A stretch of DNA of 64,000 bases from Escherichia coli (GCF_017348835.2 NZ_CP071375.1); one strand, 5' to 3'; shown: positions 35,214 to 62,374, counted from the first letter of the stretch. The notes: generated by a model not told the origin, from the letters alone. A program made the numbers and translations.

Positions 35214-36815
35214 ATGACTGAACAGGCAACAACAACCGATGAACTGGCTTTCACAAGGCCTTATGGCGAGCAGGAGAAGCAAATTCTTACTGCCGAAGCG
35301 GTAGAATTTCTGACTGAGCTGGTGACGCATTTTACGCCACAACGCAATAAACTTCTGGCGGCGCGTATTCAGCAGCAGCAAGATATTGATAACGGAACGT
35401 TGCCTGATTTTATTTCGGAAACAGCTTCCATTCGTGATACAGACTGGAAAATTCGTGGTATTCCCGCGGACTTACAAGATCGTCGAGTCGAGATAACTGG
35501 CCCGGTTGAGCGCAAGATGGTGATCAACGCACTCAACGCCAATGTGAAAGTCTTTATGGCCGATTTCGAAGATTCACTGGCACCAGACTGGAACAAAGTG
35601 ATCGACGGGCAAATAAACCTGCGTGATGCAGTTAACGGCACCATCAGCTATACCAATGAAGCAGGCAAAATTTATCAGCTCAAGCCCAATCCAGCGGTTT
35701 TGATTTGTCGGGTACGCGGTCTGCACTTGCCGGAAAAACATGTCACCTGGCGTGGTGAGGCAATCCCCGGTAGCCTGTTTGATTTTGTGCTCTATTTCTT
35801 CCACAACTATCAGGCACTGTTGGCAAAGGGCAGCGGTCCCTATTTCTATCTGCCGAAAACCCAGTCCTGGCAGGAAGCGGCCTGGTGGAGCGAAGTCTTC
35901 AGCTATGCAGAAGATCGCTTTAATCTGCCGCGCGGCACCATCAAGGCGACGTTGCTGATTGAAACGCTGCCCGCCGTGTTCCAGATGGACGAAATCCTTC
36001 ACGCACTGCGTGACCATATTGTTGGTCTGAACTGCGGTCGTTGGGATTACATCTTCAGTTATATCAAAACGTTGAAAAACTATCCCGATCGCGTCCTGCC
36101 AGACAGACAGGCAGTGACGATGGATAAACCATTCCTGAATGCTTACTCACGCCTGTTAATCAAAACCTGCCATAAACGCGGTGCTTTTGCGATGGGCGGC
36201 ATGGCGGCGTTTATTCCGAGCAAAGATGAAGAGCGCAATAACCAGGTGCTCAACAAAGTAAAAGCGGATAAATCGCTGGAAGCCAACAACGGTCACGATG
36301 GCACATGGATCGCTCACCCAGGCCTTGCGGATACGGCAATGGCGGTATTCAACGACATTCTCGGCTCCCGTAAAAATCAGCTTGAAGTGATGCGCGAACA
36401 AGACGCGCCGATTACTGCCAATCAGCTACTGGCACCTTGTGATGGTGAACGCACCGAAGAAGGTATGCGCGCCAACATTCGCGTGGCTGTGCAGTACATC
36501 GAAGCGTGGATCTCCGGCAACGGCTGCGTGCCGATTTATGGCCTGATGGAAGATGCGGCGACGGCTGAAATTTCCCGTACCTCGATCTGGCAGTGGATCC
36601 ATCATCAAAAAACGTTGAGCAATGGCAAACCGGTGACCAAAGCCTTGTTCCGCCAGATGCTGGGCGAAGAGATGAAAGTCATTGCCAGCGAACTGGGCGA
36701 AGAACGTTTCTCCCAGGGGCGTTTTGACGATGCCGCACGCTTGATGGAACAGATCACCACTTCCGATGAGTTAATTGATTTCCTGACCCTGCCAGGCTAC
36801 CGCCTGTTAGCGTAA
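35214..36815 (+). CDS. aceB: Malate synthase A
   Basis: 533 aa from [21 protein letters not shown]; first gene of aceBAK. Confidence 0.95.
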
Positions 36816-49959: not shown

Positions 49960-50110
49960 ACGTATTGCACAGGCGCTGAGACTGATGACAAACACAGCAT
50001 TGCCTGATGCGCTACGCTTACCTGACCTACCAGATAACTGCAATATATTGAATTTTCAAAATTATGTAGACCGAATAAGGCTTCATTCCGCATCCGGCAT
50101 AAACAATGTG
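49960..50110. repeat. REP-like elements downstream of pepE
   Basis: GCCTGATGCGCTACGCTTACCTGACCTAC and CATTCCGCATCCGGCATAAACAATGTGCAC units. Confidence 0.65.
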
Positions 50111-50258
50111 CACTTTGCCACCAATTTGAGCGCCCCTTAAGGCGCTGATATTTTTTATGCTTCTCGTGCAAATTGTGCTGCTTCAGCAATCAGCAGCTCA
50201 TCCGGTCGCGAAGTTGCTGGTGCGACCAGCCAGCGACATGCAGAGTTGAGTAACGCGA

Positions 50259-51488
50259 TTAATCATGGGAAATTGCCTCTGCATGAGTGAGCAGATATTG
50301 CTCCGCCTCACCGGACCAGATCCCCTGATGACGCGCCAGAATCGCCGCCAGTGCTTGATCCTGAATCTGCGTGAGTGACGTCAGCGGCAGGTATTTCTCG
50401 GTATACACCAGCTTTTTGCCGCCGCCGACGGCAGGCAATTCAAGCGTGGTTTCGCCCGCGGCATTCAGCCCAAGAATATGTGTTACCACTTTTGCGGCCT
50501 GCACTTTTTTCTCTTCGATCAGTTTGACCGCCGCGCGCATGTCGTCGGTATTGCCGCCTGACGTGCCCACGTAGTGGGTAAATGCATAATGCACATCGTA
50601 GAAATTAATTGGCGCGCTGAAATGTTTATCCTGCGGTCCGGCGAAGAAATTCAGGCAACCATCTGTCGCCAGCAAGGAAGAGGCGAGAGTCACCAGTCCT
50701 TCATTAGGCACAAAGACGAAAATATCATCGAAGCCGTGACCGCCACTCAGCGCCATTAGCGTATCAAATGCTGCATCGGTGGCATTGAGATAATGAATCA
50801 GTGTTTGCGGTTCTGATGGATAGTGCTTGCGCGCATAACTCAATTTATCGTTGTCGGTATCGGTAATGACGAGCAGCGACGGGTTAACGGGTCCATGTAG
50901 CGCATAATCAATCGCCAACAGTCCCATTGGTCCGGTGCCGCCGAGGATCAGCGTGCGCCCTTGCGGGCGAATCCCCATCGTGTGGTTATAACTACCTTCC
51001 TGAAGATGATAGTTGGCGTTGAACGCGCCAATCACGCAGGAAAGTGGTTCAACCAGCGAGCCTTCAAAATAGGTTTCGCCGTCGTATGCCAGCAGGCAAT
51101 CTTGTTCCATGACCTCGTTGGGAATAACCACATGCGTGGCTTCGCCGCCCACCCACGGGAAGGAGTAGCCGGGGCAGTCCGGGCGATCCGGCAATTGCAG
51201 GTTGGCCTGAATCACATAACGCTGACCCGGCTGGAATTTGTGCTGCCACTTTTTACCCACGGCCAGAATATCGCCGCAAAACTCGTGGCCGATGATGATT
51301 GGGTTGGTCGCCACATCGTCGGGTACTTTTTTATGGTTTTCACCCAGGTTGGCCTCTTTCCAGGAAGAGAGGCACAGGCTGTCAGTGACCACCGTCGCGA
51401 GGATTTCATCCTCCTGCATTTCAGGAAGGTCAAAGGTTTCCAGGCGTAAATCACGTTTACCATAAAGACGCAGAGCTGTTGTTTTCAT
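50259..51488 (-). CDS. sorE: Zinc-dependent dehydrogenase, sorbose-1-phosphate reductase-like
   Basis: Start taken at MKTTALRLYG with GAGGTG RBS (409 aa); GHEFCG zinc motif; last gene of a sor-type operon. Confidence 0.7.
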   Translation of the reverse strand: MKTTALRLYGKRDLRLETFDLPEMQEDEILATVVTDSLCLSSWKEANLGENHKKVPDDVATNPIIIGHEFCGDILAVGKKWQHKFQPGQRYVIQANLQLPDRPDCPGYSFPWVGGEATHVVIPNEVMEQDCLLAYDGETYFEGSLVEPLSCVIGAFNANYHLQEGSYNHTMGIRPQGRTLILGGTGPMGLLAIDYALHGPVNPSLLVITDTDNDKLSYARKHYPSEPQTLIHYLNATDAAFDTLMALSGGHGFDDIFVFVPNEGLVTLASSLLATDGCLNFFAGPQDKHFSAPINFYDVHYAFTHYVGTSGGNTDDMRAAVKLIEEKKVQAAKVVTHILGLNAAGETTLELPAVGGGKKLVYTEKYLPLTSLTQIQDQALAAILARHQGIWSGEAEQYLLTHAEAISHD

Positions 51489-51539
51489 AAACCACCTCAT
51501 GTTGAGCGATGGCCCCGGCAGTCGTGCCGGGGCGAAGAA

Positions 51540-52394
51540 TCAGGACAGGAAGCCCAGCGCATTGCCGATAATCCCTAAGCCAAACAGGGCGAAAATCAGC
51601 CATACCGGGTTAATTTTTTTGTTGAGCAGACGAACCATTAGTAGCGTCAGACCGAGCGCCAGCAAACCAGGGCAAAGTTGGTCGAGAATGTTCTGCACGG
51701 TCATGATGACGGTGGAGCCATCGGCGGCATGCGTTTGTGAAACCACCAACGGTACGTTGATTGACGTCCATTTGGTGACCAGCACGCCCATCACAAACAG
51801 TCCGAGAATCGACGCGCCTTCGGTGAGTTTTTGCAGCAAATTACCGCCCATATCGCTGACGATATTCACCCCTTTGCGAAAGCCGAGCTGGAGGCCATAC
51901 CACTTCATCGCCAGACGCACCGCGTTGAAAATAAAGAAGAACAGCAGCGGGCCGAGAATGTTGCCCGAAAGTGCCAGAGATGCGCCGAGCGCGGCGGTAA
52001 TCGGGCGCAGCGTTCCCCAGACCAGTGGATCGCCAACCCCTGCCAATGGTCCCATCAGACCGACTTTGATGCCGTTAATGGTGCCGTCATCAATTTCCGC
52101 GCCGTTGGCCCGCGCCTCTTCCATGGCGGCAGTGACGCCGATGACCGGGCCACATACGGCTGGCGTGGTATTGAAGAACACCAGGTGTCGCCTGAGCGCC
52201 GCAACCTGATCCTCTTTTAATGGGTAAAGTCGCTTGATGGCGGGGATCATGTCGTAGCAAAAGCCCAGCCCGTGAATACGTTCAAAGTTAAAGGACGCCT
52301 GTTGCAGGTTGGAGCGCAGAAACATGCTCACCAGATCGCTGCGTGTAATTTTTCTCTGTTCCATGATGGCTCCGTTAATCGTCAAGTTGGTCAA
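51540..52394 (-). CDS. sorM: PTS mannose/sorbose-family EIID component
   Basis: 284-aa hydrophobic ORF; start may be the internal MEQRK at 52364. Confidence 0.8.
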   Translation of the reverse strand: MTNLTINGAIMEQRKITRSDLVSMFLRSNLQQASFNFERIHGLGFCYDMIPAIKRLYPLKEDQVAALRRHLVFFNTTPAVCGPVIGVTAAMEEARANGAEIDDGTINGIKVGLMGPLAGVGDPLVWGTLRPITAALGASLALSGNILGPLLFFFIFNAVRLAMKWYGLQLGFRKGVNIVSDMGGNLLQKLTEGASILGLFVMGVLVTKWTSINVPLVVSQTHAADGSTVIMTVQNILDQLCPGLLALGLTLLMVRLLNKKINPVWLIFALFGLGIIGNALGFLS

Positions 52395-53172
52395 GGGCGG
52401 TGGAAGCGGGGGCCTGGAGCTGAGGTTCAGCTTTACGCCACTGTGGATTTAACTGGATGTAGACCAGGGCCATGATCACGCCGACGCCACCGAACGCCAG
52501 CAGACTGAGATCGAGGTAGCCACCTGCGAGGAAACCGAGGAAAAAGAAAGGCATCAAATATTTCACGCCCATCATACGTAGCACCATGGCGTAACCGACC
52601 ACCACGATAAAACCGCCAGCAATCTGTAGTCCTCGGGTCACAAATTCGGGAATGGCGTTTAACATATTGCTCACCATATCGGCGCTGACGAACAGCGAGA
52701 CAATCAGTGCCGGAACAGCAACGCGCAGCGCCTGCACGCCAAGCGCGGAGACATGCAGAATATCGAGAGTGCGAAACCGTGCTTCTTCCGCTGCTTTATC
52801 CGCCGCGTGCTGGAACACTACGGTGATGGTACGTGCAAACACCGTCAGCACCTGGCCTGCCGCAGCCACAGGCAACGCGATGGCGATTCCGGTGGCGATG
52901 CTTTGCTGACCAACGATAACCAGAATGGCGGAGATTATGCTGGCGAGTGCAGAATCCGGAGATTGCGCCGCGCCGACGTTCATCCAGCCGAGAGCTATCA
53001 ATTCCAGCGTACCACCGAGTATTATTCCGGTTTTTAAATCACCGAGAATTAAACCAATCACCGTACAGGCAATTAACGGGCGATGAGTCTGGAATTCATC
53101 CAGCACGCTGCCCATTCCGGCAATACAGGAAAAAAGAAATATAGCAATAATTTGTAGGGTACTTATTTCCAT
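52375..53172 (-). CDS. sorA: PTS mannose/sorbose-family EIIC component
   Basis: 265-aa integral membrane ORF MEISTLQIIAIFLFSCIAGMGSVLDEF... Confidence 0.8.
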   Translation of the reverse strand: MEISTLQIIAIFLFSCIAGMGSVLDEFQTHRPLIACTVIGLILGDLKTGIILGGTLELIALGWMNVGAAQSPDSALASIISAILVIVGQQSIATGIAIALPVAAAGQVLTVFARTITVVFQHAADKAAEEARFRTLDILHVSALGVQALRVAVPALIVSLFVSADMVSNMLNAIPEFVTRGLQIAGGFIVVVGYAMVLRMMGVKYLMPFFFLGFLAGGYLDLSLLAFGGVGVIMALVYIQLNPQWRKAEPQLQAPASTALDQLDD

Positions 53173-53237
53173 GATTTGTCACCTTTTAAGTGTCGTCATC
53201 CCTGCCTGTTAAAGCATATGTACACAGGCGCTATTAT

Positions 53238-53732
53238 TTAATTTGCGATTAACTGTTCGTTTATTTTGTCGATAATATTGATTGAGGGATCTGACGCTAC
53301 GACGCGTAAATCCAGTATGACGCCAAGATTATTTAACTCATGAAATGCGTTAATATCATCATCATCTAATGAAACCGCTTTGGTTAACTGTTTTTTACCG
53401 GGCCGCCAGGCCATGCCGCCAATATTCAGGGTGCCTATTTTTACCCCCTGGCGAACCATCGCTAAGGCATCCTGTGGGCGAGTGAAAAGATAAAAAACGG
53501 TTTCGTCCTGATATTGCGGGTTGTGATAAACCGCGACGGCTTTTTCAATATTGACCACGTTAACCTTCATTCCCGGTGGCGCAGCCTGACGCAATAATGT
53601 CCGGCGAACTTCATCGTTATAAACTTCGTCATTGCAGATAATAATGCGCTGGGCGTTAGCCACTTTCGACCAGACGGTAGTGACCTGACCGTGGATCAGG
53701 CGGTCATCAATGCGGGCGAGCGTAATGTTCAT
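53238..53732 (-). CDS. sorB: PTS mannose/sorbose-family EIIB component
   Basis: 164-aa ORF with the IIB-Man signature ARIDDRLIHGQV (phospho-His). Confidence 0.85.
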   Translation of the reverse strand: MNITLARIDDRLIHGQVTTVWSKVANAQRIIICNDEVYNDEVRRTLLRQAAPPGMKVNVVNIEKAVAVYHNPQYQDETVFYLFTRPQDALAMVRQGVKIGTLNIGGMAWRPGKKQLTKAVSLDDDDINAFHELNNLGVILDLRVVASDPSINIIDKINEQLIAN

Positions 53733-54139
53733 CAGAAATCCTCCTCTGCCGTTGCCACCTGTCTCCAGACGACGCAGGATTGCTTTGCGATTTGCGTCAG
53801 GTGTTCACACAGTTCATCAACATTCATGCTGTCCTGGTTATCAACCAGTTCGAGCGCCAGCGGCAGAGAAAGGCCGCTGATTACCCGCAAACGAGGATTG
53901 CGCATCGCAAGCATCGCTGCCGCATTCCACGGGCTGCCGCACTGTAAATCCACGGCAATCAGCCACTCATCTTGATTGTGAATGCTTACTAACTTTTCCA
54001 GCTTTACCACAATGTCTCCGGCGTTTTCACCGGGCACAAATTCAACGGCTTCAACATTGGCGTTGCCGTAAACCATCTGAACCGATTCCAGCATGGCGCA
54101 AGCTAATTTGCCGTGGGCACAAAAAATGGCGTTGACCAT
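53732..54139 (-). CDS. sorF: PTS mannose/sorbose-family EIIA component
   Basis: 135-aa ORF MVNAIFCAHGKLA... (IIA-Man N-terminal His); 1-nt overlap with sorB. Confidence 0.8.
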   Translation of the reverse strand: MVNAIFCAHGKLACAMLESVQMVYGNANVEAVEFVPGENAGDIVVKLEKLVSIHNQDEWLIAVDLQCGSPWNAAAMLAMRNPRLRVISGLSLPLALELVDNQDSMNVDELCEHLTQIAKQSCVVWRQVATAEEDF

Positions 54140-54148
54140 AAAGCCTCC

Positions 54149-54955
54149 TTATCCGCGCGTTTTGCCGCCCGCAATGTTAGTGGTTACTCCGGTGATGTAG
54201 CTGGCGCGTTCAGACAACAGATAACAAACAAAATCAGCGACTTCTGCTAATCTACCGGCGCGCCCAATAGGAATGGCGTTTTTGGTATAGCCTTCACGCA
54301 GCTGCTCGACGGTGATATTGCGCGTCCACGCCAGCGCTTCTTCATATTCCGGCGTGCGCAGTCCTGTTTTTTCCAGAATCCCCGGCGCGATACCGACCAC
54401 ACGGATACCGTGTTTACCCAATTCTTTCGACCAGGAGCGCGTGAAGCTATTGAGCGCGGCTTTGGTAGCGGCGTAACAGCTTTGTCCTTCTGAGCCTTCC
54501 AGCCCACTTTCTGAGGAAACATTCACAATCACGCCATCATGTTGTTTGACCATCTGTCGCGCCACCGCCTGCGACATCAGAAAAACACCTTTCTGGTTGA
54601 TATTGACCATTTTTTCGAATGCAGCTTCGTTGAGTTCATACTGCCCGGCAGGCGCTTTCTCATCGACCAGCAGACGCGGGAAATTGACCCCGGCGTTATT
54701 GACCAGACCGTCGATGCGACCAAAACGCTGGATAATTTCCGCTACCGTATGATTTACCTCTTTGGCGCTGGAAATATCGGTCGGCCAAAACTGATAGCCT
54801 TTATGACCTTCATATTGTCCATCGCCACCGTGAATATCGACCATCTGTACATTCGCGCCTTGTGCTAATAATTCCTCTACAATCGCCAGACCAATACCGG
54901 ATGCGCCGCCGGTGACGATAATGATTTTATCCTGCAAATTTAACCACGTTTGCAT
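54149..54955 (-). CDS. sorD: SDR dehydrogenase, sorbitol-6-phosphate dehydrogenase-like
   Basis: 268-aa ORF with TGGASGIG and YAATK motifs. Confidence 0.78.
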   Translation of the reverse strand: MQTWLNLQDKIIIVTGGASGIGLAIVEELLAQGANVQMVDIHGGDGQYEGHKGYQFWPTDISSAKEVNHTVAEIIQRFGRIDGLVNNAGVNFPRLLVDEKAPAGQYELNEAAFEKMVNINQKGVFLMSQAVARQMVKQHDGVIVNVSSESGLEGSEGQSCYAATKAALNSFTRSWSKELGKHGIRVVGIAPGILEKTGLRTPEYEEALAWTRNITVEQLREGYTKNAIPIGRAGRLAEVADFVCYLLSERASYITGVTTNIAGGKTRG

Positions 54956-55024
54956 AACAGACTCCTGATTTTAGATAATAGGGACCCGCCGTAATTTTTA
55001 TTACGATAAACATCGGGAAGATTT

Positions 55025-55972
55025 TTATTTCAGTAATAGTTCAGCTGTGCTGCTATTCGTTACCAGACAATTAATATATTTTCCACGCAGTGCACCAATA
55101 ATTCCGCTGTATTTTTCTTCACTCATGGCAATGCCAATGGAATATCGTGCCTGCTTTAATTTATTCATTTCGATAGAGAGTGTTTTTTCGCTCATATTCG
55201 TTTCAACCATTGCGCCGTGAATATCAAAAAAGCGCGAGCAAATATCGCCAGCAACCTGGCGGGCATTCAGGTCGTCACTCTCTTCACCACCATAAAACGC
55301 ATGCCAGTTAGCGCCGTCGCGAATGGCCGGTGAGCCAATTCCCACCAGGGCGACATCCAGATTATCCCAGTAGGCAGAGATGGTTTTAAAGTGCTGAGAC
55401 TGCATGATCCCATTACGAATTAAGGGGTTATCCAGCAGAGCCGGAAAATCCGCGAGATGCGATTCCCCTTTCAGCTTCGCTGCCGCGCTGTAGGTTAATG
55501 TGTTTACGTGATAGCGGCTTTCGAGTTTACCGGACGGTCCGCCAATAATTGGCACGCAGATTAACTGCCGCGATTGCCCCGCTTGCGGCAAGTTTTCAAC
55601 CAGTGCGCTCACCGCGCGACCCCAGGAAAAACCGACAATATCGCCAGGCTCCAGCAAGCGATCCAGCAGTTGCGCGCCGTGTAACCCCATCATCGCCAGT
55701 TGAGTCTCTTCATCCTCATCATTTCCCGACACCACCACAACGTCTTTCAGGCCAAACTTTTGCTTCAGTTGCTGCTCGAGCCAGAGATTTTCGTTGTAGT
55801 CATAGTTGATGGCGATGGTGACAATTCCCTGATCGCGGCCTCGTTTAAGCAAGCGGCTGATGGTGGTGCGGTAAATACCCAGTTCGCGCGCGATTTGCGC
55901 CTGCGTCATATCCTGTTCGTAATAGAGTTGGGCAATCTTCACAATCAAACGGATATCGTCACTGTTTTCCAT
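55025..55972 (-). CDS. sorC: SorC-family transcriptional regulator
   Basis: Start taken at MENSDDIRL with AGGAGG RBS (315 aa); N-terminal HTH (MTQAQIARELGIYRTTISRLL) plus sugar-binding domain. Confidence 0.8.
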   Translation of the reverse strand: MENSDDIRLIVKIAQLYYEQDMTQAQIARELGIYRTTISRLLKRGRDQGIVTIAINYDYNENLWLEQQLKQKFGLKDVVVVSGNDEDEETQLAMMGLHGAQLLDRLLEPGDIVGFSWGRAVSALVENLPQAGQSRQLICVPIIGGPSGKLESRYHVNTLTYSAAAKLKGESHLADFPALLDNPLIRNGIMQSQHFKTISAYWDNLDVALVGIGSPAIRDGANWHAFYGGEESDDLNARQVAGDICSRFFDIHGAMVETNMSEKTLSIEMNKLKQARYSIGIAMSEEKYSGIIGALRGKYINCLVTNSSTAELLLK

Positions 55973-56319
55973 TGCCGCCTCCTGGTTCTGCACATTTGTG
56001 CAAATACGCTTTCTCACCGCTTGATCTGATATAACCCCATCATGATGGCCTTTCAAAGCGATTTTTCACTCTTTGCATGGGGAGAAATAGCGCTTTCTCT
56101 TGCACATTTGTTTCTCTGCGCAGTAGTCATCAGCACAGGTGTGCAGCGATTCGTAATATGTTGATTATCCTTATTTTGCCAGGCAAATTTGCATTGTACT
56201 TCCGGAGACACTTTTGTGATAAAAGGCGTGGCAGATCACATTTAATTTCGACGTTGCCGCATAACTCTGTTTTTCCCTGCTAAGAGGTACGGTATATTCC
56301 GCGTTTTACAGGAGAATTT

Positions 56320-57192
56320 ATGCTGCCCGACTCATCAGTCCGTTTAAATAAATACATCAGCGAAAGCGGAATTTGCTCACGCCGCGAAGCGGATCGCTAT
56401 ATCGAGCAAGGCAATGTGTTCCTTAATGGCAAGCGAGCCACCATTGGCGATCAGGTGAAACCCGGCGACGTTGTGAAAGTAAACGGTCAGTTGATTGAGC
56501 CTCGGGAAGCCGAAGATTTGGTACTTATCGCCTTGAACAAGCCCGTCGGTATTGTCAGCACCACCGAAGATGGCGAGCGCGATAACATTGTCGATTTCGT
56601 TAACCACAGCAAACGCGTGTTCCCGATTGGTCGTCTGGATAAAGATTCCCAGGGGCTGATTTTCCTCACCAACCACGGTGATCTGGTGAATAAGATCCTG
56701 CGTGCTGGCAATGATCATGAAAAAGAGTATTTGGTAACGGTCGATAAACCGATTACCGATGAATTTATTCGTGGTATGGGGGCGGGAGTGCCGATCCTCG
56801 GGACGGTGACGAAAAAGTGCAAAGTCAAAAAAGAAGCACCGTTTGTCTTCCGCATTACCCTGGTGCAGGGGTTGAACCGTCAGATCCGTCGCATGTGCGA
56901 GCACTTTGGTTACGAAGTGAAAAAGCTGGAACGTACGCGCATTATGAACGTCAGCTTAAGCGGCATTCCGCTGGGTGAGTGGCGCGATTTAACTGACGAT
57001 GAGTTAATCGACCTCTTTAAGCTCATCGAAAATTCCTCTTCCGAGGCAAAACCTAAAGCGAAGGCCAAACCGAAAACAGCGGGCATCAAACGTCCAGTCG
57101 TTAAGATGGAAAAAACGGCGGAAAAAGGCGGTCGCCCGGCGTCCAACGGTAAGCGTTTTACCTCGCCGGGGCGAAAAAAGAAGGGGCGCTAA
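56320..57192 (+). CDS. rluF: 23S rRNA pseudouridine synthase F
   Basis: 290-aa ORF with S4 domain and RsuA-type catalytic core; Lys/Ala-rich tail. Confidence 0.93.
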
Positions 57193-57465
57193 TCAGCGCC
57201 TGCCGCGCGTCGACGTATTTGCTGACCAGCTAAATGACGCTTCAGGATCCGGTTTATAAGCCTGCTTTTTCTTTAACTGGCGGGCTTTTTTCGCTTCAGC
57301 CTCACGCTCGACCATTAATTTATCGATGTACTCTTTCTTAATGCTGTTGGTTTCGGAGTTGGTCAGTACGCGACCATGCGCAATCCGCGCCCGATCCAGC
57401 AGTGTTTTAAGTTCACGTTGCTCGCGTTCAGTCATCTCTTTTTGAGTAATACGGGGGAGTGCCAT
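57193..57465 (-). CDS. yjbD: DUF3811-family small protein
   Basis: 90-aa ORF; its stop codon abuts the rluF stop codon. Confidence 0.85.
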   Translation of the reverse strand: MALPRITQKEMTEREQRELKTLLDRARIAHGRVLTNSETNSIKKEYIDKLMVEREAEAKKARQLKKKQAYKPDPEASFSWSANTSTRGRR

Positions 57466-57678
57466 GATGGTGCCCTCAGTGAGCCAGAGAGTTCAGTGTA
57501 CGGGAATTCGTTTGCGAGCAGAACTGATAATATTCCTTTGTTCTCTTCTTAAATATTTATCTTTCTTGATAATTGACGATAAATACAGATACAAATTTAG
57601 CGAAAAAATCTCCCCCTACAAACAACAATGATTTATTAAATCTTTATTTTTCATGTAATTAAAATTTTTTATCACTTC

Positions 57679-57694
57679 TGGCACGCTTCTCGCA
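57679..57694 (+). promoter_or_regulatory. Candidate sigma-54-type promoter ~300 nt upstream of the SPFH gene
   Basis: TGGCACGCTTCTCGCA with GG-N10-GC spacing; motif match only. Confidence 0.3.
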
Positions 57695-57993
57695 ATAACA
57701 CTTTTGCGTTGATACTGAATTACAAAGGGGGTTAAACCCCGTCGGCACACCAGGAACGGCCAGGCTGTTTTCCGGGCGTGTTCCGTCAGCCTTTGACGCC
57801 AATTACGGGTTCGATTCCCACATTCATTCCTGAAATGAATACTGGTTGTAACTTATTAAATAAAAAATGAGGGATTGCGCAGTCTGCGGTCCCCGATAAC
57901 GTCACCGATAAAGATGCCGGGTAACAGGCAAAAGGGAATTCCCCTGTCGCTTCGTGTCTGCTTCCGCGACGGCTATTAAGCAAGGAATAGATA

Positions 57994-59121
57994 ATGATTA
58001 AAAAAATAAGCGTAAGAAAAGATCAGCTGGCATTACTCTCCAGAAACGGCGATTACTACAAAGTGCTGCATGCAGGCGAGCATATTTTACCCTGGTTAAA
58101 TACCCCGGAAGTGTTGCTGATTACGCTGGATGGTAGCGAAGTTCCCGACGTGCTTGCGGATTATTTGCGCCGCTTTCAGCCTGATTGGGTGGAGAAATAT
58201 TGCCTGGTGGCAGACTTGTCGGAGACTGAAGCCGGGGTGTTGTATATGGACGGTATTTTGTTGGAGATCCTGCCGCCATCAACGCGTCGTTTGTACTGGC
58301 GTGTAGAGGATGATTTGACGCTGGTGCGGATGAATACGCAGCAAGTCCCGGTACAAACGGAGGTGATGAATGCGGTATTACAGCCACGGCGCAAAGGAGT
58401 TGTTAAAGGCCGCGATGCGATACTGACGGTGCAGGTTCCGGCCTGGCATGTAGGCGTGCTGAAAATCGATGGTGAAACGCAGGCGCTGTTACCGCCGGGG
58501 CTGACTGCGTACTGGAAAATAAATCATCTGGTTGAAGCTGAAGTTGTCGACACCCGCTTGCAGGTACTGGAAGTCAGCGGGCAAGAAATCTTAACGAAAG
58601 ATAAGGTCAATCTGCGGATTAATCTCGCCGCTAACTGGCGCTATAGCGATGTGTTGCTGGCATTTAGTCAGCTAACGAAGCCGATTGATCATTTGTATCG
58701 GGAATTACAATTTGCCCTGCGTGAAGCGGTAGGTACGCGCACACTGGATGAACTGCTGGAAGATAAACAGGTCATTGATGACGTTGTTAGCGAGCAGGTG
58801 AAACTACGCATGAAGCCGTTCGGTATGGAGATCGCTTCGTTAGGAGTAAAAGATATCGTCCTGCCTGGCGATATGAAAAATATTCTTGCGCAACTGGTAG
58901 AGGCGGAGAAATCCGCGCAGGCCAATGTGATTCGCCGACGTGAAGAAACGGCAGCGACGCGCTCGTTACTGAACACCGCCAAAGTCATGGAGAACAATCC
59001 GGTAGCGTTGCGTTTAAAAGAGCTGGAAACGCTGGAGAGAGTGGCTGAGCGGATTGATAACATCTCTGTATTTGGCGGTCTGGATCAGGTTCTGCATGGG
59101 TTGGTTAATATCAAAGGGTGA
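57994..59121 (+). CDS. SPFH/band-7 (stomatin-like) domain protein with an unassigned ~180-aa N-terminal region
   Basis: 375-aa ORF with RBS. C-terminal half (GQEILTKDKVNLRINLAANWRY...IASLGVKDIVLPGDMKNILAQLVEAEKSAQANVIRRRE...) is stomatin/prohibitin-like. No obvious transmembrane helix. Confidence 0.7.
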   Translation: MIKKISVRKDQLALLSRNGDYYKVLHAGEHILPWLNTPEVLLITLDGSEVPDVLADYLRRFQPDWVEKYCLVADLSETEAGVLYMDGILLEILPPSTRRLYWRVEDDLTLVRMNTQQVPVQTEVMNAVLQPRRKGVVKGRDAILTVQVPAWHVGVLKIDGETQALLPPGLTAYWKINHLVEAEVVDTRLQVLEVSGQEILTKDKVNLRINLAANWRYSDVLLAFSQLTKPIDHLYRELQFALREAVGTRTLDELLEDKQVIDDVVSEQVKLRMKPFGMEIASLGVKDIVLPGDMKNILAQLVEAEKSAQANVIRRREETAATRSLLNTAKVMENNPVALRLKELETLERVAERIDNISVFGGLDQVLHGLVNIKG

Positions 59122-59126
59122 GTAAC

Positions 59127-59918
59127 ATGCCATTAAATGGAGTCAGTGCTGCGATGCGCGAAAGGGTATCGCAGCAGTTAAAAGAAATTGAACGTCGCTA
59201 TGGCGTGAAAGTGCTGTACGCCTGCGAATCGGGGAGTCGCGGCTGGGGATTTGCTTCGCCCGACAGCGATTACGATGTGCGGTTTTTGTATGTCCATCCG
59301 CTGGAATGGTATCTGCGGGTAGAGGCACCACGCGATGTTATCGAACTGCCCATCGACGACGAGTTAGATGTTTCCGGTTGGGAATGGCGCAAAGCGCTGG
59401 GATTGCTGAAAGGTGCGAATCCCACGCTAATTGAATGGCTGGATTCACCGGTGGTCTATCAGCAAGATGAAGAGACGATAACGGCGCTTAAGGCAATGGT
59501 CCCAACGTGGTTTTCTCCGTTGCGTGCGCGCTGGCATTACTATTCGATGGCGCAGAAAAACTTCCGCGGATATTTGCAGGGCGATGAAGTTCGACTGAAA
59601 AAATACTTTTACGTGCTGCGTCCGTTGCTGGCCGTGCGTTGGGTTGAAGCGGGAAAAGGCGTACCGCCAATGCGTTTTTCCGAATTGCTGGCGGGAAGTG
59701 AGTTGGATGCGGCCTTACGCGCAGAAATAGATGAATTACTGGAACGTAAACAGCGTGCGGGTGAAGCGGAATATGGCCCACGCCGTCCATTGCTACATGC
59801 GTTTATCCATGCGGAACTGGCGCGTGGGGAAATTCCGCCTGTGTTACCGGATAGTAGAGAAGGGGACGTTAAGAAACTGGATAGCTTACTGTACCAGACG
59901 GTAATGCGCCGGGCGTGA
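59127..59918 (+). CDS. Pol-beta-superfamily nucleotidyltransferase
   Basis: 263 aa from ATG 59127 (a GTG at 59118 would overlap the upstream stop by 4 nt); motif GSRGWGFASPDSDYDV fits GS-x10-DhDh. Confidence 0.7.
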   Translation: MPLNGVSAAMRERVSQQLKEIERRYGVKVLYACESGSRGWGFASPDSDYDVRFLYVHPLEWYLRVEAPRDVIELPIDDELDVSGWEWRKALGLLKGANPTLIEWLDSPVVYQQDEETITALKAMVPTWFSPLRARWHYYSMAQKNFRGYLQGDEVRLKKYFYVLRPLLAVRWVEAGKGVPPMRFSELLAGSELDAALRAEIDELLERKQRAGEAEYGPRRPLLHAFIHAELARGEIPPVLPDSREGDVKKLDSLLYQTVMRRA

Positions 59919-59933
59919 TGCCCGGCGTTATTT
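59908..59933. terminator. Bidirectional terminator-like hairpin between convergent genes
   Basis: cgccgggc-gtga-gcccggcg followed by TTATTT; spans the nucleotidyltransferase stop codon. Confidence 0.6.
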
Positions 59934-59950
59934 CAGGTCATCAGCTTTTA

Positions 59951-60880
59951 TTATTCTTGTGCACTTCCGCTGATTTCATTTTGTATATGCGTTGCAATAT
60001 CGCAATTGGTTGCCGCTTGTGAACTAAATATCATCTTCTCACGCGAATACACCGCAAACTTATCTGCCAGGTTTGAAGCAAACACCTTGCTGGCATTTTC
60101 TGCTAGCAAATCGGTAACGATATCATGGTGATTTTTATCCACTTTGCGGGCGATATTTCCCGCCTCTTTGTCCTTATTATACCCTTCGTTGGTGCTTTCC
60201 CAGCTTAATGCCGCTGAGGTGGTTTTTATCATGACTTCTGTTCGGTAGCCTGCATCTTTGAGTTTTTTTAATGTTTGTAGCGGCGTAGCGGCATTACGAA
60301 ATGTTCCTTCGACAACAATATTGAGTTTATTGGCTATGGCCCTCTCTATTGCACGTTCGACCGTTTCGCCGGAAAATTTTGCCGTATGGGTAACAAAATC
60401 GTCGCCATAAGTTTGATATATATAATTAAAATCAGGGTGTAGAAATCTGAAATCATCACCATTAATAATCATTATATTATTCTTTGTTTCCCTTTTTGCT
60501 AATTCGATTAGGGCGGATTTTCCGGCTCCTGGTTGTCCACCTAAAACAAAACCAATGGGACTCTGCTGGGATGTGACGTCATGGTTTGTCAGACGCTGCC
60601 AAATAGAATCAAAAGACGCTTTATTTTCTGAATGCGCAGTATTATTAAATTCACGCTGATACTTTTTTCTGACCTGCTGGAGGCGTAACTTTCCCTGTGT
60701 AAAATCAACAAGTTCTGCTGGAGTGGAATAAAGATTGTCGCGATAGCTGACTAATTGTGATAGCTCATCGTCTGAGTCCTGAACTTGTGAGGAAAAACAA
60801 CTGTCGACGATATTTGATAAAAACGCGATGCACTGACTGGTGCCGTTTAAAAGTGCATCTTTTTCCATTAAAGTAGCCAT
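59951..60880 (-). CDS. Zeta-toxin-family kinase with ~100-aa N-terminal extension (EzeT-like)
   Basis: 309 aa from ATG 60880 with AGGAG RBS; Walker A GGQPGAGKS ~115 residues from the N-terminus; AT-rich codon usage. Confidence 0.65.
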   Translation of the reverse strand: MATLMEKDALLNGTSQCIAFLSNIVDSCFSSQVQDSDDELSQLVSYRDNLYSTPAELVDFTQGKLRLQQVRKKYQREFNNTAHSENKASFDSIWQRLTNHDVTSQQSPIGFVLGGQPGAGKSALIELAKRETKNNIMIINGDDFRFLHPDFNYIYQTYGDDFVTHTAKFSGETVERAIERAIANKLNIVVEGTFRNAATPLQTLKKLKDAGYRTEVMIKTTSAALSWESTNEGYNKDKEAGNIARKVDKNHHDIVTDLLAENASKVFASNLADKFAVYSREKMIFSSQAATNCDIATHIQNEISGSAQE

Positions 60881-60981
60881 TAACACTCCTGTTAAATAAT
60901 ATTTTTCGGTGATTATAATACTGTTCTACAGGAGTGATTTTGCATTTCAGATATTATTTAATCTATGTTTGCAGTGAGGAT

Positions 60982-61012
60982 GGCGTATAACAATTGGTGA
61001 GCGTTATACGCC
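60982..61012. promoter_or_regulatory. 10-bp perfect inverted repeat between lysC stop and the zeta-like gene
   Basis: GGCGTATAAC-11 nt-GTTATACGCC; no T-run follows on either strand. Confidence 0.4.
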
Positions 61013-61024
61013 AGTAGGAAAATA

Positions 61025-62374
61025 TTACTCAAACAAATTACTATGCAGTTTTTGCACCACCTGCTCGGCATCTTCGCCGGGCACCAGGAAGCACAGGTTA
61101 TGGCTGGATGCGCCGTAACAAATCATGCGAATGTTGAACGGTTCCAGTACGCCGAATACCTCTTTGCCAACGCCGCAGGCTTTTGACAGGTCATTGCCAA
61201 TCAACGCGACCAGCGCCAGACCTTCTTCTACTTCCACCCGGCACAGTGCGGAAAGCTCCATCAGCAGAGATTGCGTCAGCAACGTATCGCCAGTGGAGGT
61301 TGAACCGGTGGTATCAAGGGTTAATGCCACGCTCACTTCTGACGTGGTGATTAAGTCTACCGAAATATTATGCCGCGCGAGGATGCCGAAAACTTCCGCG
61401 AGGAAGCCGCGAGAATGCAGCATATTCAGGCTGTGCAAAGTGAGCAGAGTCTGATTGCGACGAAGCGCCAGCGCGCGGAACAGCGGCGGATTTTCAGTTT
61501 TATTGCATACCAGCGTACCACCTGCGCGTGGGTCTTTGCTGGAGCCGACAAAGACCGGGATATCGCTGCGTACTGCGGGTAGCAATGTTGCCGGATGCAG
61601 TACTTTTGCACCAAAAGTTGCCATCTCTGCTGCTTCGGCAAACGCGATTTCATCAATGCGTTTTGCTGCGGAAACCACGCGTGGATCGGTGGTGTAGATG
61701 CCCGGGACGTCGGTCCAGATATCAACACGAGATGCGTGTAAAGCCTCCGCCAGCAAGGCTGCCGTATAATCGCTGCCTCCACGGCCAAGCGTCGTTGTAC
61801 GACCTTTATTTTCGCTACCGATAAATCCCTGGGTGATCACTAAACCTTCATTGAGACGTGGGAGCAGCTGCAGCGCGGCCAGTTCCGCCAGCGCGGCTAT
61901 ATCTGGCTCTGCACGACCAAATCGGTCGTTGGTACGCATCACTTTACGTACATCAAACCACTGTGCCTGAACATCGCGTTCGCGCAGGATCTCAACAAAC
62001 AGCAGGGTCGACATCAGCTCGCCGTGGCTGACCAGCTCATCTGTCAGCGCCGGAGACGTTGCCAGCGCCGCCGCTTCTGCCAGAACAGTAATGTTCTCCA
62101 GCAGACGTTCAATCTCTTCACGGATAACGTTCGGGTAACGCAGACGTTCCAGAATGGCAAACTGGATGTTGCGAATAGCGTCGAGTTTTTCGAATCGCTC
62201 GCCAGGTTCCAGCCCTTCCGCTAAAGCGACCAGCAGATTAGTGATACCAGCAGAAGCCGAGAGGACAACTAAACGCACGTTGGCATCAGAAAGCACAATA
62301 TCAGCGCTGCGGTTCATGGCGTCAAAATCAGCTACGCTGGTACCGCCAAATTTGGAGACAACAATTTCAGACAT
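61025..62374 (-). CDS. lysC: Lysine-sensitive aspartokinase III
   Basis: 449-aa ORF MSEIVVSKFGGTSVADFDAMNRSADIVL... with C-terminal ACT domains. Confidence 0.96.
   Translation of the reverse strand: MSEIVVSKFGGTSVADFDAMNRSADIVLSDANVRLVVLSASAGITNLLVALAEGLEPGERFEKLDAIRNIQFAILERLRYPNVIREEIERLLENITVLAEAAALATSPALTDELVSHGELMSTLLFVEILRERDVQAQWFDVRKVMRTNDRFGRAEPDIAALAELAALQLLPRLNEGLVITQGFIGSENKGRTTTLGRGGSDYTAALLAEALHASRVDIWTDVPGIYTTDPRVVSAAKRIDEIAFAEAAEMATFGAKVLHPATLLPAVRSDIPVFVGSSKDPRAGGTLVCNKTENPPLFRALALRRNQTLLTLHSLNMLHSRGFLAEVFGILARHNISVDLITTSEVSVALTLDTTGSTSTGDTLLTQSLLMELSALCRVEVEEGLALVALIGNDLSKACGVGKEVFGVLEPFNIRMICYGASSHNLCFLVPGEDAEQVVQKLHSNLFE

Follow-up and report, generated by a model that had tools for sequence, protein, structure and literature searches.

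Introduction

SPFH/Band-7 scaffolds, a cognate transfer RNA (tRNA)-like RNA and the nucleotidyltransferase RlaP were reportedly proposed by Burroughs and Aravind in 2016 as components of RNA repair. The subject here is a 64,000-nucleotide stretch of Escherichia coli DNA (GCF_017348835.2, NZ_CP071375.1), called the window throughout and numbered from its first letter, in which the interval between yjbD and lysC holds a gene for a slipin (an SPFH protein), a gene for RlaP and, on the opposite strand, a gene for a zeta-toxin-family kinase, ezeT. It is proposed, with a probability of roughly 0.65, that slipin and RlaP, with the leader RNA in front of them, form a reduced RNA-repair operon of the RtcR/sigma-54 type (unit 1), that ezeT is an independent unit 2, and that K-12-type strains have deleted unit 1.

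The closest described systems belong to the Rtc family of RNA-repair operons. In Pseudomonas aeruginosa the SPFH protein PaFlo8 is located inside the rtc locus (PMC13086221), and in P. fluorescens and P. aeruginosa the genes flanking rlaP are rtcB and rtcA; two RlaP enzymes from Pseudomonas attach one or two nucleoside monophosphates to RNA 3'-OH ends, and this addition makes over-trimmed tRNA functional again after ligation (preprint 10.64898/2025.12.29.696909). E. coli has the rtcR-rtcBA locus (Genschik 1998; Hughes 2020, PMC7790460; Kotta-Loizou 2022, PMC9650030), whose regulator RtcR is activated by damaged tRNA fragments (PMC7790460), and Salmonella has rsr-yrlBA-rtcBA, with a Ro60 homologue and Y RNAs that mimic tRNA (PMC4201824, PMC7790460). 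EzeT, as relayed in later papers, is a uridine diphosphate-N-acetylglucosamine kinase toxin quenched in cis by its N-terminal domain (Rocker & Meinhart 2015, via PMC4826407 and PMC10532202).

Comparison with described systems

Unit 1 has the same slipin family, RlaP family, promoter, GATA-box and leader 5' domain as the Slipin(Band-7)-RtcB-RlaP-(RtcA) operons, such as the rtc locus of P. aeruginosa, which encodes PaFlo8 and RlaP; however, it lacks rtcR, rtcB and rtcA in cis, and its tRNA-like part is down to a T-arm hairpin. With the E. coli rtcR-rtcBA locus it shares a sigma-54 promoter, an ATATCC-type box and a paralogous regulator and ligase, whereas the native leader is only ~30 nucleotides (nt) long and the native locus has neither slipin nor RlaP. 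The Salmonella operon is also of the RtcR/sigma-54 kind and also combines a gene for a scaffold-type protein with a noncoding RNA that has tRNA-like features, although the scaffold of the module is SPFH and not Ro/TROVE and its RNA is a 5' mRNA leader; no TROVE open reading frame (ORF) was found in the region, and there was no Rfam Y-RNA match at E <= 10 for the leader or at E <= 1 for the region. The membrane slipin/stomatin-NfeD pairs (such as QmcA-YbbJ) and the eukaryotic major vault protein are also among the closest systems; the window slipin lacks a membrane anchor, and no NfeD gene adjoins it as a partner. The zeta gene resembles the published EzeT in its position beside lysC and in its PezT-like kinase core, the window copy being a diverged allele, and differs from epsilon/zeta and PezAT, having no separate antitoxin gene (no ORF was found in the 144-bp region upstream of it).

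Relatives of unit 1 in other genera

Eighty species-level loci were gathered with a slipin-family profile (50%-clustered protein search), and their neighbours were counted by tblastn with defined queries; ORF clustering was set aside, as it merged RtcB with RlaP and was affected by shadow ORFs in high-GC (guanine plus cytosine) genomes. Slipin has RtcB as a neighbour in 56 of these loci, RtcR in 55, RlaP in 31 and RtcA in 19, the identities of RtcB, RtcR and RtcA being confirmed with NCBIfam, and the commonest gene order is rtcR(-) slipin rtcB rlaP (rtcA). RtcR-slipin-RlaP without RtcB is found in only four of the 80 loci; rtcB is gone and rtcR retained in four genera, rtcR and rtcB are both lost only in E. 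coli, and none of the 80 species loci has the minimal arrangement of E. coli.

The operon also occupies the same chromosomal address. In Citrobacter, Kosakonia, Enterobacter, Siccibacter, Pseudocitrobacter and Phytobacter it is found at or next to yjbD/lysC, as rtcR / slipin-(rtcB)-RlaP. The order in Citrobacter freundii is rluF-yjbD-relE/xre-rtcR / slipin-RlaP-lysC-pgi, and the noncoding stretch upstream of its slipin is 80% identical to window positions 57596-57993. The C. freundii record is labelled as a 425-kb plasmid, yet it carries the core genes rluF, lysC, pgi and yjbEFGH and may be a mis-assigned piece of chromosome; a relE/parE-xre toxin-antitoxin pair lies between yjbD and rtcR (L004, 3579-4270). 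In the operons of Providencia, Proteus and Xenorhabdus, a ribonuclease Z/BN gene adjoins rtcR (L013, 2934-3848; equivalents in L014, L022 and L049).

In E. coli, surveyed in 5,426 complete genomes, locus-type rtcR was found in none, while native rtcR is present in 5,423, and nearly all carry the native rtcR-rtcBA locus elsewhere. There is no divergent rtcR in the window region and no RtcB ORF between yjbD and lysC, RtcB being present solely at the separate native locus. The native RtcR shares 62% identity with the RtcR of the Citrobacter locus, and the C-terminal DNA-binding regions of the two are nearly the same; between native RtcB and a locus-type RtcB the identity is 73%. Because of these identities, and of the related element at the rtcBA promoter described below, activation and ligation in trans are plausible.

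Control region

Two elements of the control region point to RtcR and sigma-54 (Table 1). The composite GATA-box motif, presumed to be the RtcR binding region, has 16 copies in 2.15 Mb (the loci plus the window, both strands), each of which precedes the sigma-54 promoter of a slipin operon by 122-146 bp, in Pseudomonas as well; the spacing in the window is 122 bp. In species that carry rtcR, the array abuts the rtcR start codon. The sigma-54 pattern has two matches in the 64-kb window, against 0.4 expected, and in ~50 of the 80 species loci TGGCAY-N5-YNGCW precedes the slipin start, typically by 310-680 nt; the Citrobacter promoter differs from that of the window by one base. The predicted promoter and the candidate upstream site that accompany Slipin-RtcB-RlaP operons are conserved in the window in both sequence and position. 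A related element, ATATCC...CGATA, precedes the native rtcBA promoter by a comparable 129 bp. The second sigma-54 match in the window lies at 36299-36314 on the + strand, TGGCACATGGATCGCT.

Table 1. Features of the yjbD-lysC interval and its borders (window coordinates).
Feature	Position	Strand	Remarks
yjbD	57193-57465	-	left neighbour of the extra segment
Candidate activator site, TTATC-N6-GATAA-N5-GATAA-N5-GATA array	57557-57591	+	within the part common to the window and K-12
Segment without counterpart in K-12-type genomes	57596-61024		blastn of the window against L001
Predicted sigma-54 promoter, TGGCACGCTTCTCGCA	57679-57694	+	-24 GG at 57680-81, -12 GC at 57692-93; predicted start near 57705
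Leader 5' domain	57695-57801	+	closing stem H1 57714-18/57786-90; hairpin H2 57724-30/57737-42; long hairpin H3/H4 57743-60/57764-85
tRNA T-arm-like hairpin, CGGG-UUCGAUU-CCCA	57806-57820	+	fourth pair is a C.A mismatch in the window allele
Small hairpin, AUUCAUU-CCUGA-AAUGAAU	57822-57840	+	predicted fold, 3' of the T-arm-like element
Leader 3' domain, extended hairpin H6-H9	57900-57971	+	ends ~15 nt 5' of the Shine-Dalgarno sequence AAGGA
Cytosolic slipin/SPFH (Band-7) gene	57994-59121	+	375 aa; no transmembrane segment
RlaP (PF10127), Pol-beta-type nucleotidyltransferase	59127-59918	+	263 aa; alternative GTG start at 59118
Intrinsic-terminator-like hairpin and tail	59906-59934	+	9-bp G+C-rich stem, UUAUUU tail
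ezeT allele	59951-60880	-	309 aa; zeta-toxin-family kinase, ~residues 97-293, and N-terminal cis-antitoxin domain
ezeT 5' region	60881-61024	-	inverted repeat and lysC terminator hairpin
lysC	61025-62374	-	right neighbour of the extra segment

Leader RNA

The predicted start and the slipin start codon are separated by ~290 nt that are noncoding. For the 5' domain, a covariance model (R1) built from 32 loci without any E. coli sequence matches the window with 45.3 bits (E = 1.7e-9), gives one + strand match ahead of slipin in 56 of 86 sources and has no match in K-12 or in the native rtc locus. In 12 Enterobacterales, RNAalifold gives 51 pairs with compensatory changes in 26, and the 3' domain, likewise across 12 Enterobacterales, has 22 pairs with compensatory changes in 14. 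In the leader alignment 94.9% of the cells pair, against 87.2% in shuffles (none of 500 reach the observed value) and ~43% when the partners are slid. The GGTTCGAWTCC motif of the T-arm lies downstream of the sigma-54 promoter in ~55 of the 80 loci, ~125-265 nt from it where both are found, and its stem covaries between GGG/CCC and AGG/CCU; in the alignment, the small hairpin that follows has compensatory changes in Citrobacter, Phytobacter, Pluralibacter and Pseudocitrobacter. An ORF on the opposite strand (57786-57983, -, 65 aa) was dismissed because it is antisense within the conserved RNA structure.

The Rfam scan assigned no family to the leader, the only match being a chance SorX-like one on the terminator, and in the Enterobacter leader the Rfam tRNA model matches the T-arm only. 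One or two tRNA-like genes, recognized by ARAGORN and Rfam, come after the 5' domain in beta-proteobacteria and Pseudomonas, and their anticodon loops are often aberrant. Several uncultured beta- and gamma-proteobacteria, as well as Aliikangiella, have arrays of 5-18 tRNA genes adjoining slipin (L042, 3538-5582; L075, 215-2455; L083, 5539-11697; L038, 4497-5761), which suggests a link between the SPFH family of this slipin and spare tRNA sets.

Slipin, RlaP and the terminator

The Band_7 domain of the slipin spans residues 147-318, and the predicted model (predicted local distance difference test score, pLDDT, of 85) has two N-terminal beta-rich repeats, the SPFH domain and a long C-terminal helix; no hydrophobic segment was found, with a maximum hydropathy of 1.0. 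The family has full-length matches in 545 clusters at 50% identity. RlaP starts 5 bp past the slipin stop codon, aligns to positions 1-248 of the 249 of the Pfam RlaP profile (E = 1.3e-96), carries the G-S...D-x-D motif and is 58-60% identical to the RlaP of the Pseudomonas slipin-rtcB-rlaP(-rtcA) operons.

The hairpin at the end of RlaP (59906-59928, -20.5 kcal/mol, z = -2.4) has the UGA stop codon of RlaP in its loop. An earlier note on this DNA, made from the sequence alone, had placed it at 59908-59933 and described it as terminator-like and shared by two convergent units, slipin and RlaP on the + strand and the zeta gene on the - strand. The hairpin and the convergent arrangement of the three genes are real; since the U-rich tail (UUAUUU) is on the + strand only, the hairpin is mainly the terminator of slipin-RlaP and less a symmetric one for both units. 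It also marks the junction with whatever occupies the space between RlaP and lysC, and it is kept in E. coli PK12 and in Superficieibacter, where a phage-tail cluster comes next and not ezeT.

Origin of the K-12 state

The yjbD-lysC spacer is 3,559 bp long in the window, with three intact genes inside, and 252 bp in K-12, in keeping with the few hundred bp given in the earlier note. By blastn, homology to the K-12-type genome L001 stops at window position 57595 and restarts exactly at the lysC stop codon, 61025, so that 122 bp of the K-12 spacer are replaced by 3,429 bp; the three genes are absent from K-12 and O157 types. What that note called a ~3.5-kb insertion is a true presence/absence polymorphism with respect to K-12, but its treatment as a single inserted piece is not supported: it is made of two layers with different histories. 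Beyond yjbD, K-12-type genomes have 132 additional bp between the rluF and yjbD stops (L001, 1694-1825), which abut in the window at 57192/57193. Upstream of rluF, a cluster with a sorbose-type phosphotransferase system, a short-chain dehydrogenase/reductase-type oxidoreductase and a SorC-like regulator (window ~50000-56056; regulator 55025-56056, -) is absent from L001 and from strain H3 (L089), where pepE abuts rluF; it is independent of the yjbD-lysC module.

The older layer, formed by the leader, slipin and RlaP (57557-59934), looks ancestral to the yjbD-lysC locus, and the empty K-12 site is best read as a deletion. This reading follows from the cross-genus synteny together with what K-12 still has, in collinear order, of the upstream site and the leader. 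Its spacer holds a degraded GATA-box array, matching the Citrobacter rtcR-proximal sequence GATAA-TAA-GAGAG...GATAAAAAAATTAA, and, collinear with it, a 26-nt piece that comes from the 3' domain of the leader, matches it at 22 of 26 positions and is equivalent to window positions 57902-57928. The score of this piece is 32, against 22 +/- 2.3 in 300 shuffles, none of which reach 32. The lysC-proximal 80 bp of the K-12 spacer have no match in the other loci.

The opposite history, in which a single 3.5-kb islet of three cooperating genes was recently acquired by horizontal transfer into a short ancestral spacer, is improbable. It would fit the presence of the segment in only 26-30% of E. coli genomes, the AT-rich ezeT part and the synonymous divergence (dS) of the window haplotype, 0.2-0.4 against 0.05 in yjbD, which suggests import by recombination. 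However, at least six further enterobacterial genera have the module at this locus too, K-12 keeps the relics just described, and slipin-RlaP occurs without ezeT (~200 E. coli genomes and all other genera), as does ezeT without RlaP (E. coli XJ6-3). The composition is foreign only in ezeT (40.9% GC; 36.8% at third codon positions, GC3), which the earlier note had rightly seen as AT-rich, whereas slipin (50.1%) and RlaP (53.0%) are host-like, the whole window having 51.5%. The borders, where that note had seen no integrase, transposase or direct repeat, also proved free of mobile-element signatures: the ORF survey of the segment found no integrase or transposase, flanking direct repeats were nothing above chance 11-14-mers, ARAGORN called no tRNA gene in the window and there was no tRNA/att target. 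Plasmid and phage collections held no true mobile carrier, as the matches labelled plasmid were chromosomes or chromids and the jumbo phages had RlaP-like genes only.

Distribution and selection in E. coli

Leader-slipin-RlaP is present in 1,631 of the 5,426 E. coli genomes and ezeT in 1,433, every copy being chromosomal, and all three genes together are at the locus in 1,424. The window haplotype is rare, with 100% identity only to the pig isolate PE164 and ~45 genomes at >= 95%. Between it and the common E. coli haplotype, slipin has a dS of 0.22 and a ratio of nonsynonymous to synonymous divergence (dN/dS) of 0.06, RlaP has a dS of 0.40 and a dN/dS of 0.055, and the leader is 93% identical, against a dS of 0.05 for yjbD. 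Slipin and RlaP are under strong purifying selection (dN/dS ~0.06), and the deep divergence of the window haplotype suggests either old allelic lineages or import by recombination.

Several observations weigh against unit 1 as a working RNA-repair operon. The module is dispensable, since 70% of E. coli genomes lack it and partial deletions occur: in E. coli XJ6-3 (L090, 3355-3864) slipin is truncated and RlaP is gone, with ezeT and lysC intact, and this strain is an intermediate in the ongoing decay of the module. Thermodynamic folding of the whole leader is no better than that of shuffled sequence on either strand (z ~0), so that its structure is drawn solely from cross-species comparison. 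The leader of the E. coli/Citrobacter group is without the ~16 nt that give an acceptor-like 5' strand in Kosakonia, Enterobacter and Siccibacter, and only the T-arm survives, which in the window allele keeps only three G-C pairs; there is no cloverleaf or acceptor stem in the window leader, and neither ARAGORN nor Rfam calls a tRNA in it. With the ~16-nt loss, the weakened T-arm and the missing tRNA call, the function of the leader RNA may therefore be reduced. Finally, the box spacing of the native rtcBA promoter is unlike that of the GATA array of the module, and activation by RtcR is inferred.

Part of this would also be expected if unit 1 were a silent, non-functional relic heading for deletion after the loss of its regulator and ligase, an explanation considered unlikely. 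The missing rtcR and rtcB, the degenerate tRNA-like element, the 70% of genomes without the module and the truncated variant are consistent with it, although the ORFs are intact in ~1,600 genomes, dN/dS is ~0.06 at a dS of 0.2-0.4, and conservation of the promoter, the upstream site and the leader is far higher than the synonymous rate would give. An RtcR and an RtcB that fit the module would, in addition, be supplied in trans.

ezeT and the RlaP-lysC slot

The gene at 59951-60880 is, by sequence, an allele of the published single-chain toxin-antitoxin gene ezeT. It matches Pfam Zeta_toxin (E = 8.9e-39) and the PezT structure 2p5t (E = 3e-31), has the Walker A motif GGQPGAGKS from residue 114 and is 88% identical to WP_000212693.1 (81% over the antitoxin domain, 91% over the kinase domain), the protein at the ezeT position of the common E. 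coli haplotype. WP_000212693.1 is the EzeT on which experiments were done, and its gene adjoins lysC in B1 strains (PMC10532202; PMC4826407). An imperfect 20-nt inverted repeat (60884-60903/60917-60936) lies across the ezeT start codon and 5' region and might serve as an operator or in the control of translation; the lysC terminator hairpin is at 60981-61013 (-15.7 kcal/mol, z = -6.8).

The contents of the slot between RlaP and lysC vary: 42 bp in Citrobacter, ezeT in most module-positive E. coli and a 15.7-kb phage-tail cluster in E. coli PK12. Among the loci examined, ezeT was found at this locus in Escherichia only, and its AT-rich segment (~59935-61024, 41% GC) looks like a later addition to a variable slot. 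The PK12 cluster (L091, 24211-39896) encodes a Mor-type activator, holin, transglycosylase, tail sheath, tube, tape measure, baseplate and fibres; with capsid, integrase and replication genes all missing, it resembles a tailocin. Its junction is at the RlaP terminator hairpin (window 59933), and homologues of its first genes lie 3' of RlaP in Phytobacter and Superficieibacter (L006, L009).

Composition, strand, separate distribution and self-contained biology set ezeT apart from the RNA-repair unit, and these differences bear on whether the three genes could be one toxin-based defence or abortive-infection system, with the zeta kinase as the effector and slipin and the nucleotidyltransferase as sensor or regulator. 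This is very improbable. The genes are neighbours in convergent order with a hairpin in between, some defence systems contain SPFH proteins and nucleotidyltransferases, and the slot is a hot spot of conflict genes (relE/xre in Citrobacter, the tail cluster in PK12). However, PADLOC 2.0 recognized no system, with no match for slipin or RlaP and one marginal match for the zeta protein (E = 0.0011, P-loop only); EzeT carries its own antitoxin in cis (PMC4826407), the two units differ in distribution, composition and strand, and outside Escherichia slipin-RlaP is tied to RtcR, RtcB and RtcA.

Proposed mechanism

For the reduced RNA-repair operon, the mechanism that may be inferred draws on conservation, synteny and the literature on homologues: induction by RtcR and sigma-54 in trans, healing of RNA ends by RlaP before ligation by RtcB, and an SPFH scaffold with its RNA. 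The Escherichia lineage would have lost rtcR from beside the operon and rtcB from inside it, and kept the control region, leader, slipin and RlaP. Upon RNA damage, tRNA fragments with 2',3'-cyclic phosphates would activate the remaining RtcR of the rtcBA locus, which would act on the GATA-box at 57557-57591 so that the sigma-54 promoter at 57679 fires, and the transcript would provide the structured leader RNA and the two proteins. RlaP would then restore one or two nucleotides on trimmed RNA 3' ends, and RtcB, in trans, would religate functional RNA. The membrane-less, multi-repeat SPFH protein may be an oligomeric scaffold whose probable ligands are the leader or tRNA-like RNA, or else the substrates.

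A more ambitious version, tentative and rather doubtful, is that the module is a trans-wired extension of the Rtc regulon with a functional leader RNA belonging to a widespread family outside Rfam, in which the membrane-less repeat-SPFH-helix protein would build, around this RNA, a vault-like ribonucleoprotein scaffold that presents the ends of damaged tRNA or transfer-messenger RNA to RlaP and RtcB.

Biological significance

The region amounts to a known type of RNA-repair operon in reduced form, together with a published toxin-antitoxin gene; with ezeT already in the literature, it is, taken at face value, an ordinary accessory region. What it adds is the correction of the direction of the difference between K-12 and the pangenome, K-12 being the deletion derivative, and a structured leader RNA family of gamma- and beta-proteobacteria that is outside Rfam. 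Slipin-RlaP is present as an accessory module, without a ligase or regulator of its own, in about 30% of E. coli, O104:H4 and many B1 strains among them. As a natural minimal version, it makes the contribution of the SPFH protein and the leader to RNA repair, as well as the driving of two loci by one RtcR, testable in the best-understood Rtc model.

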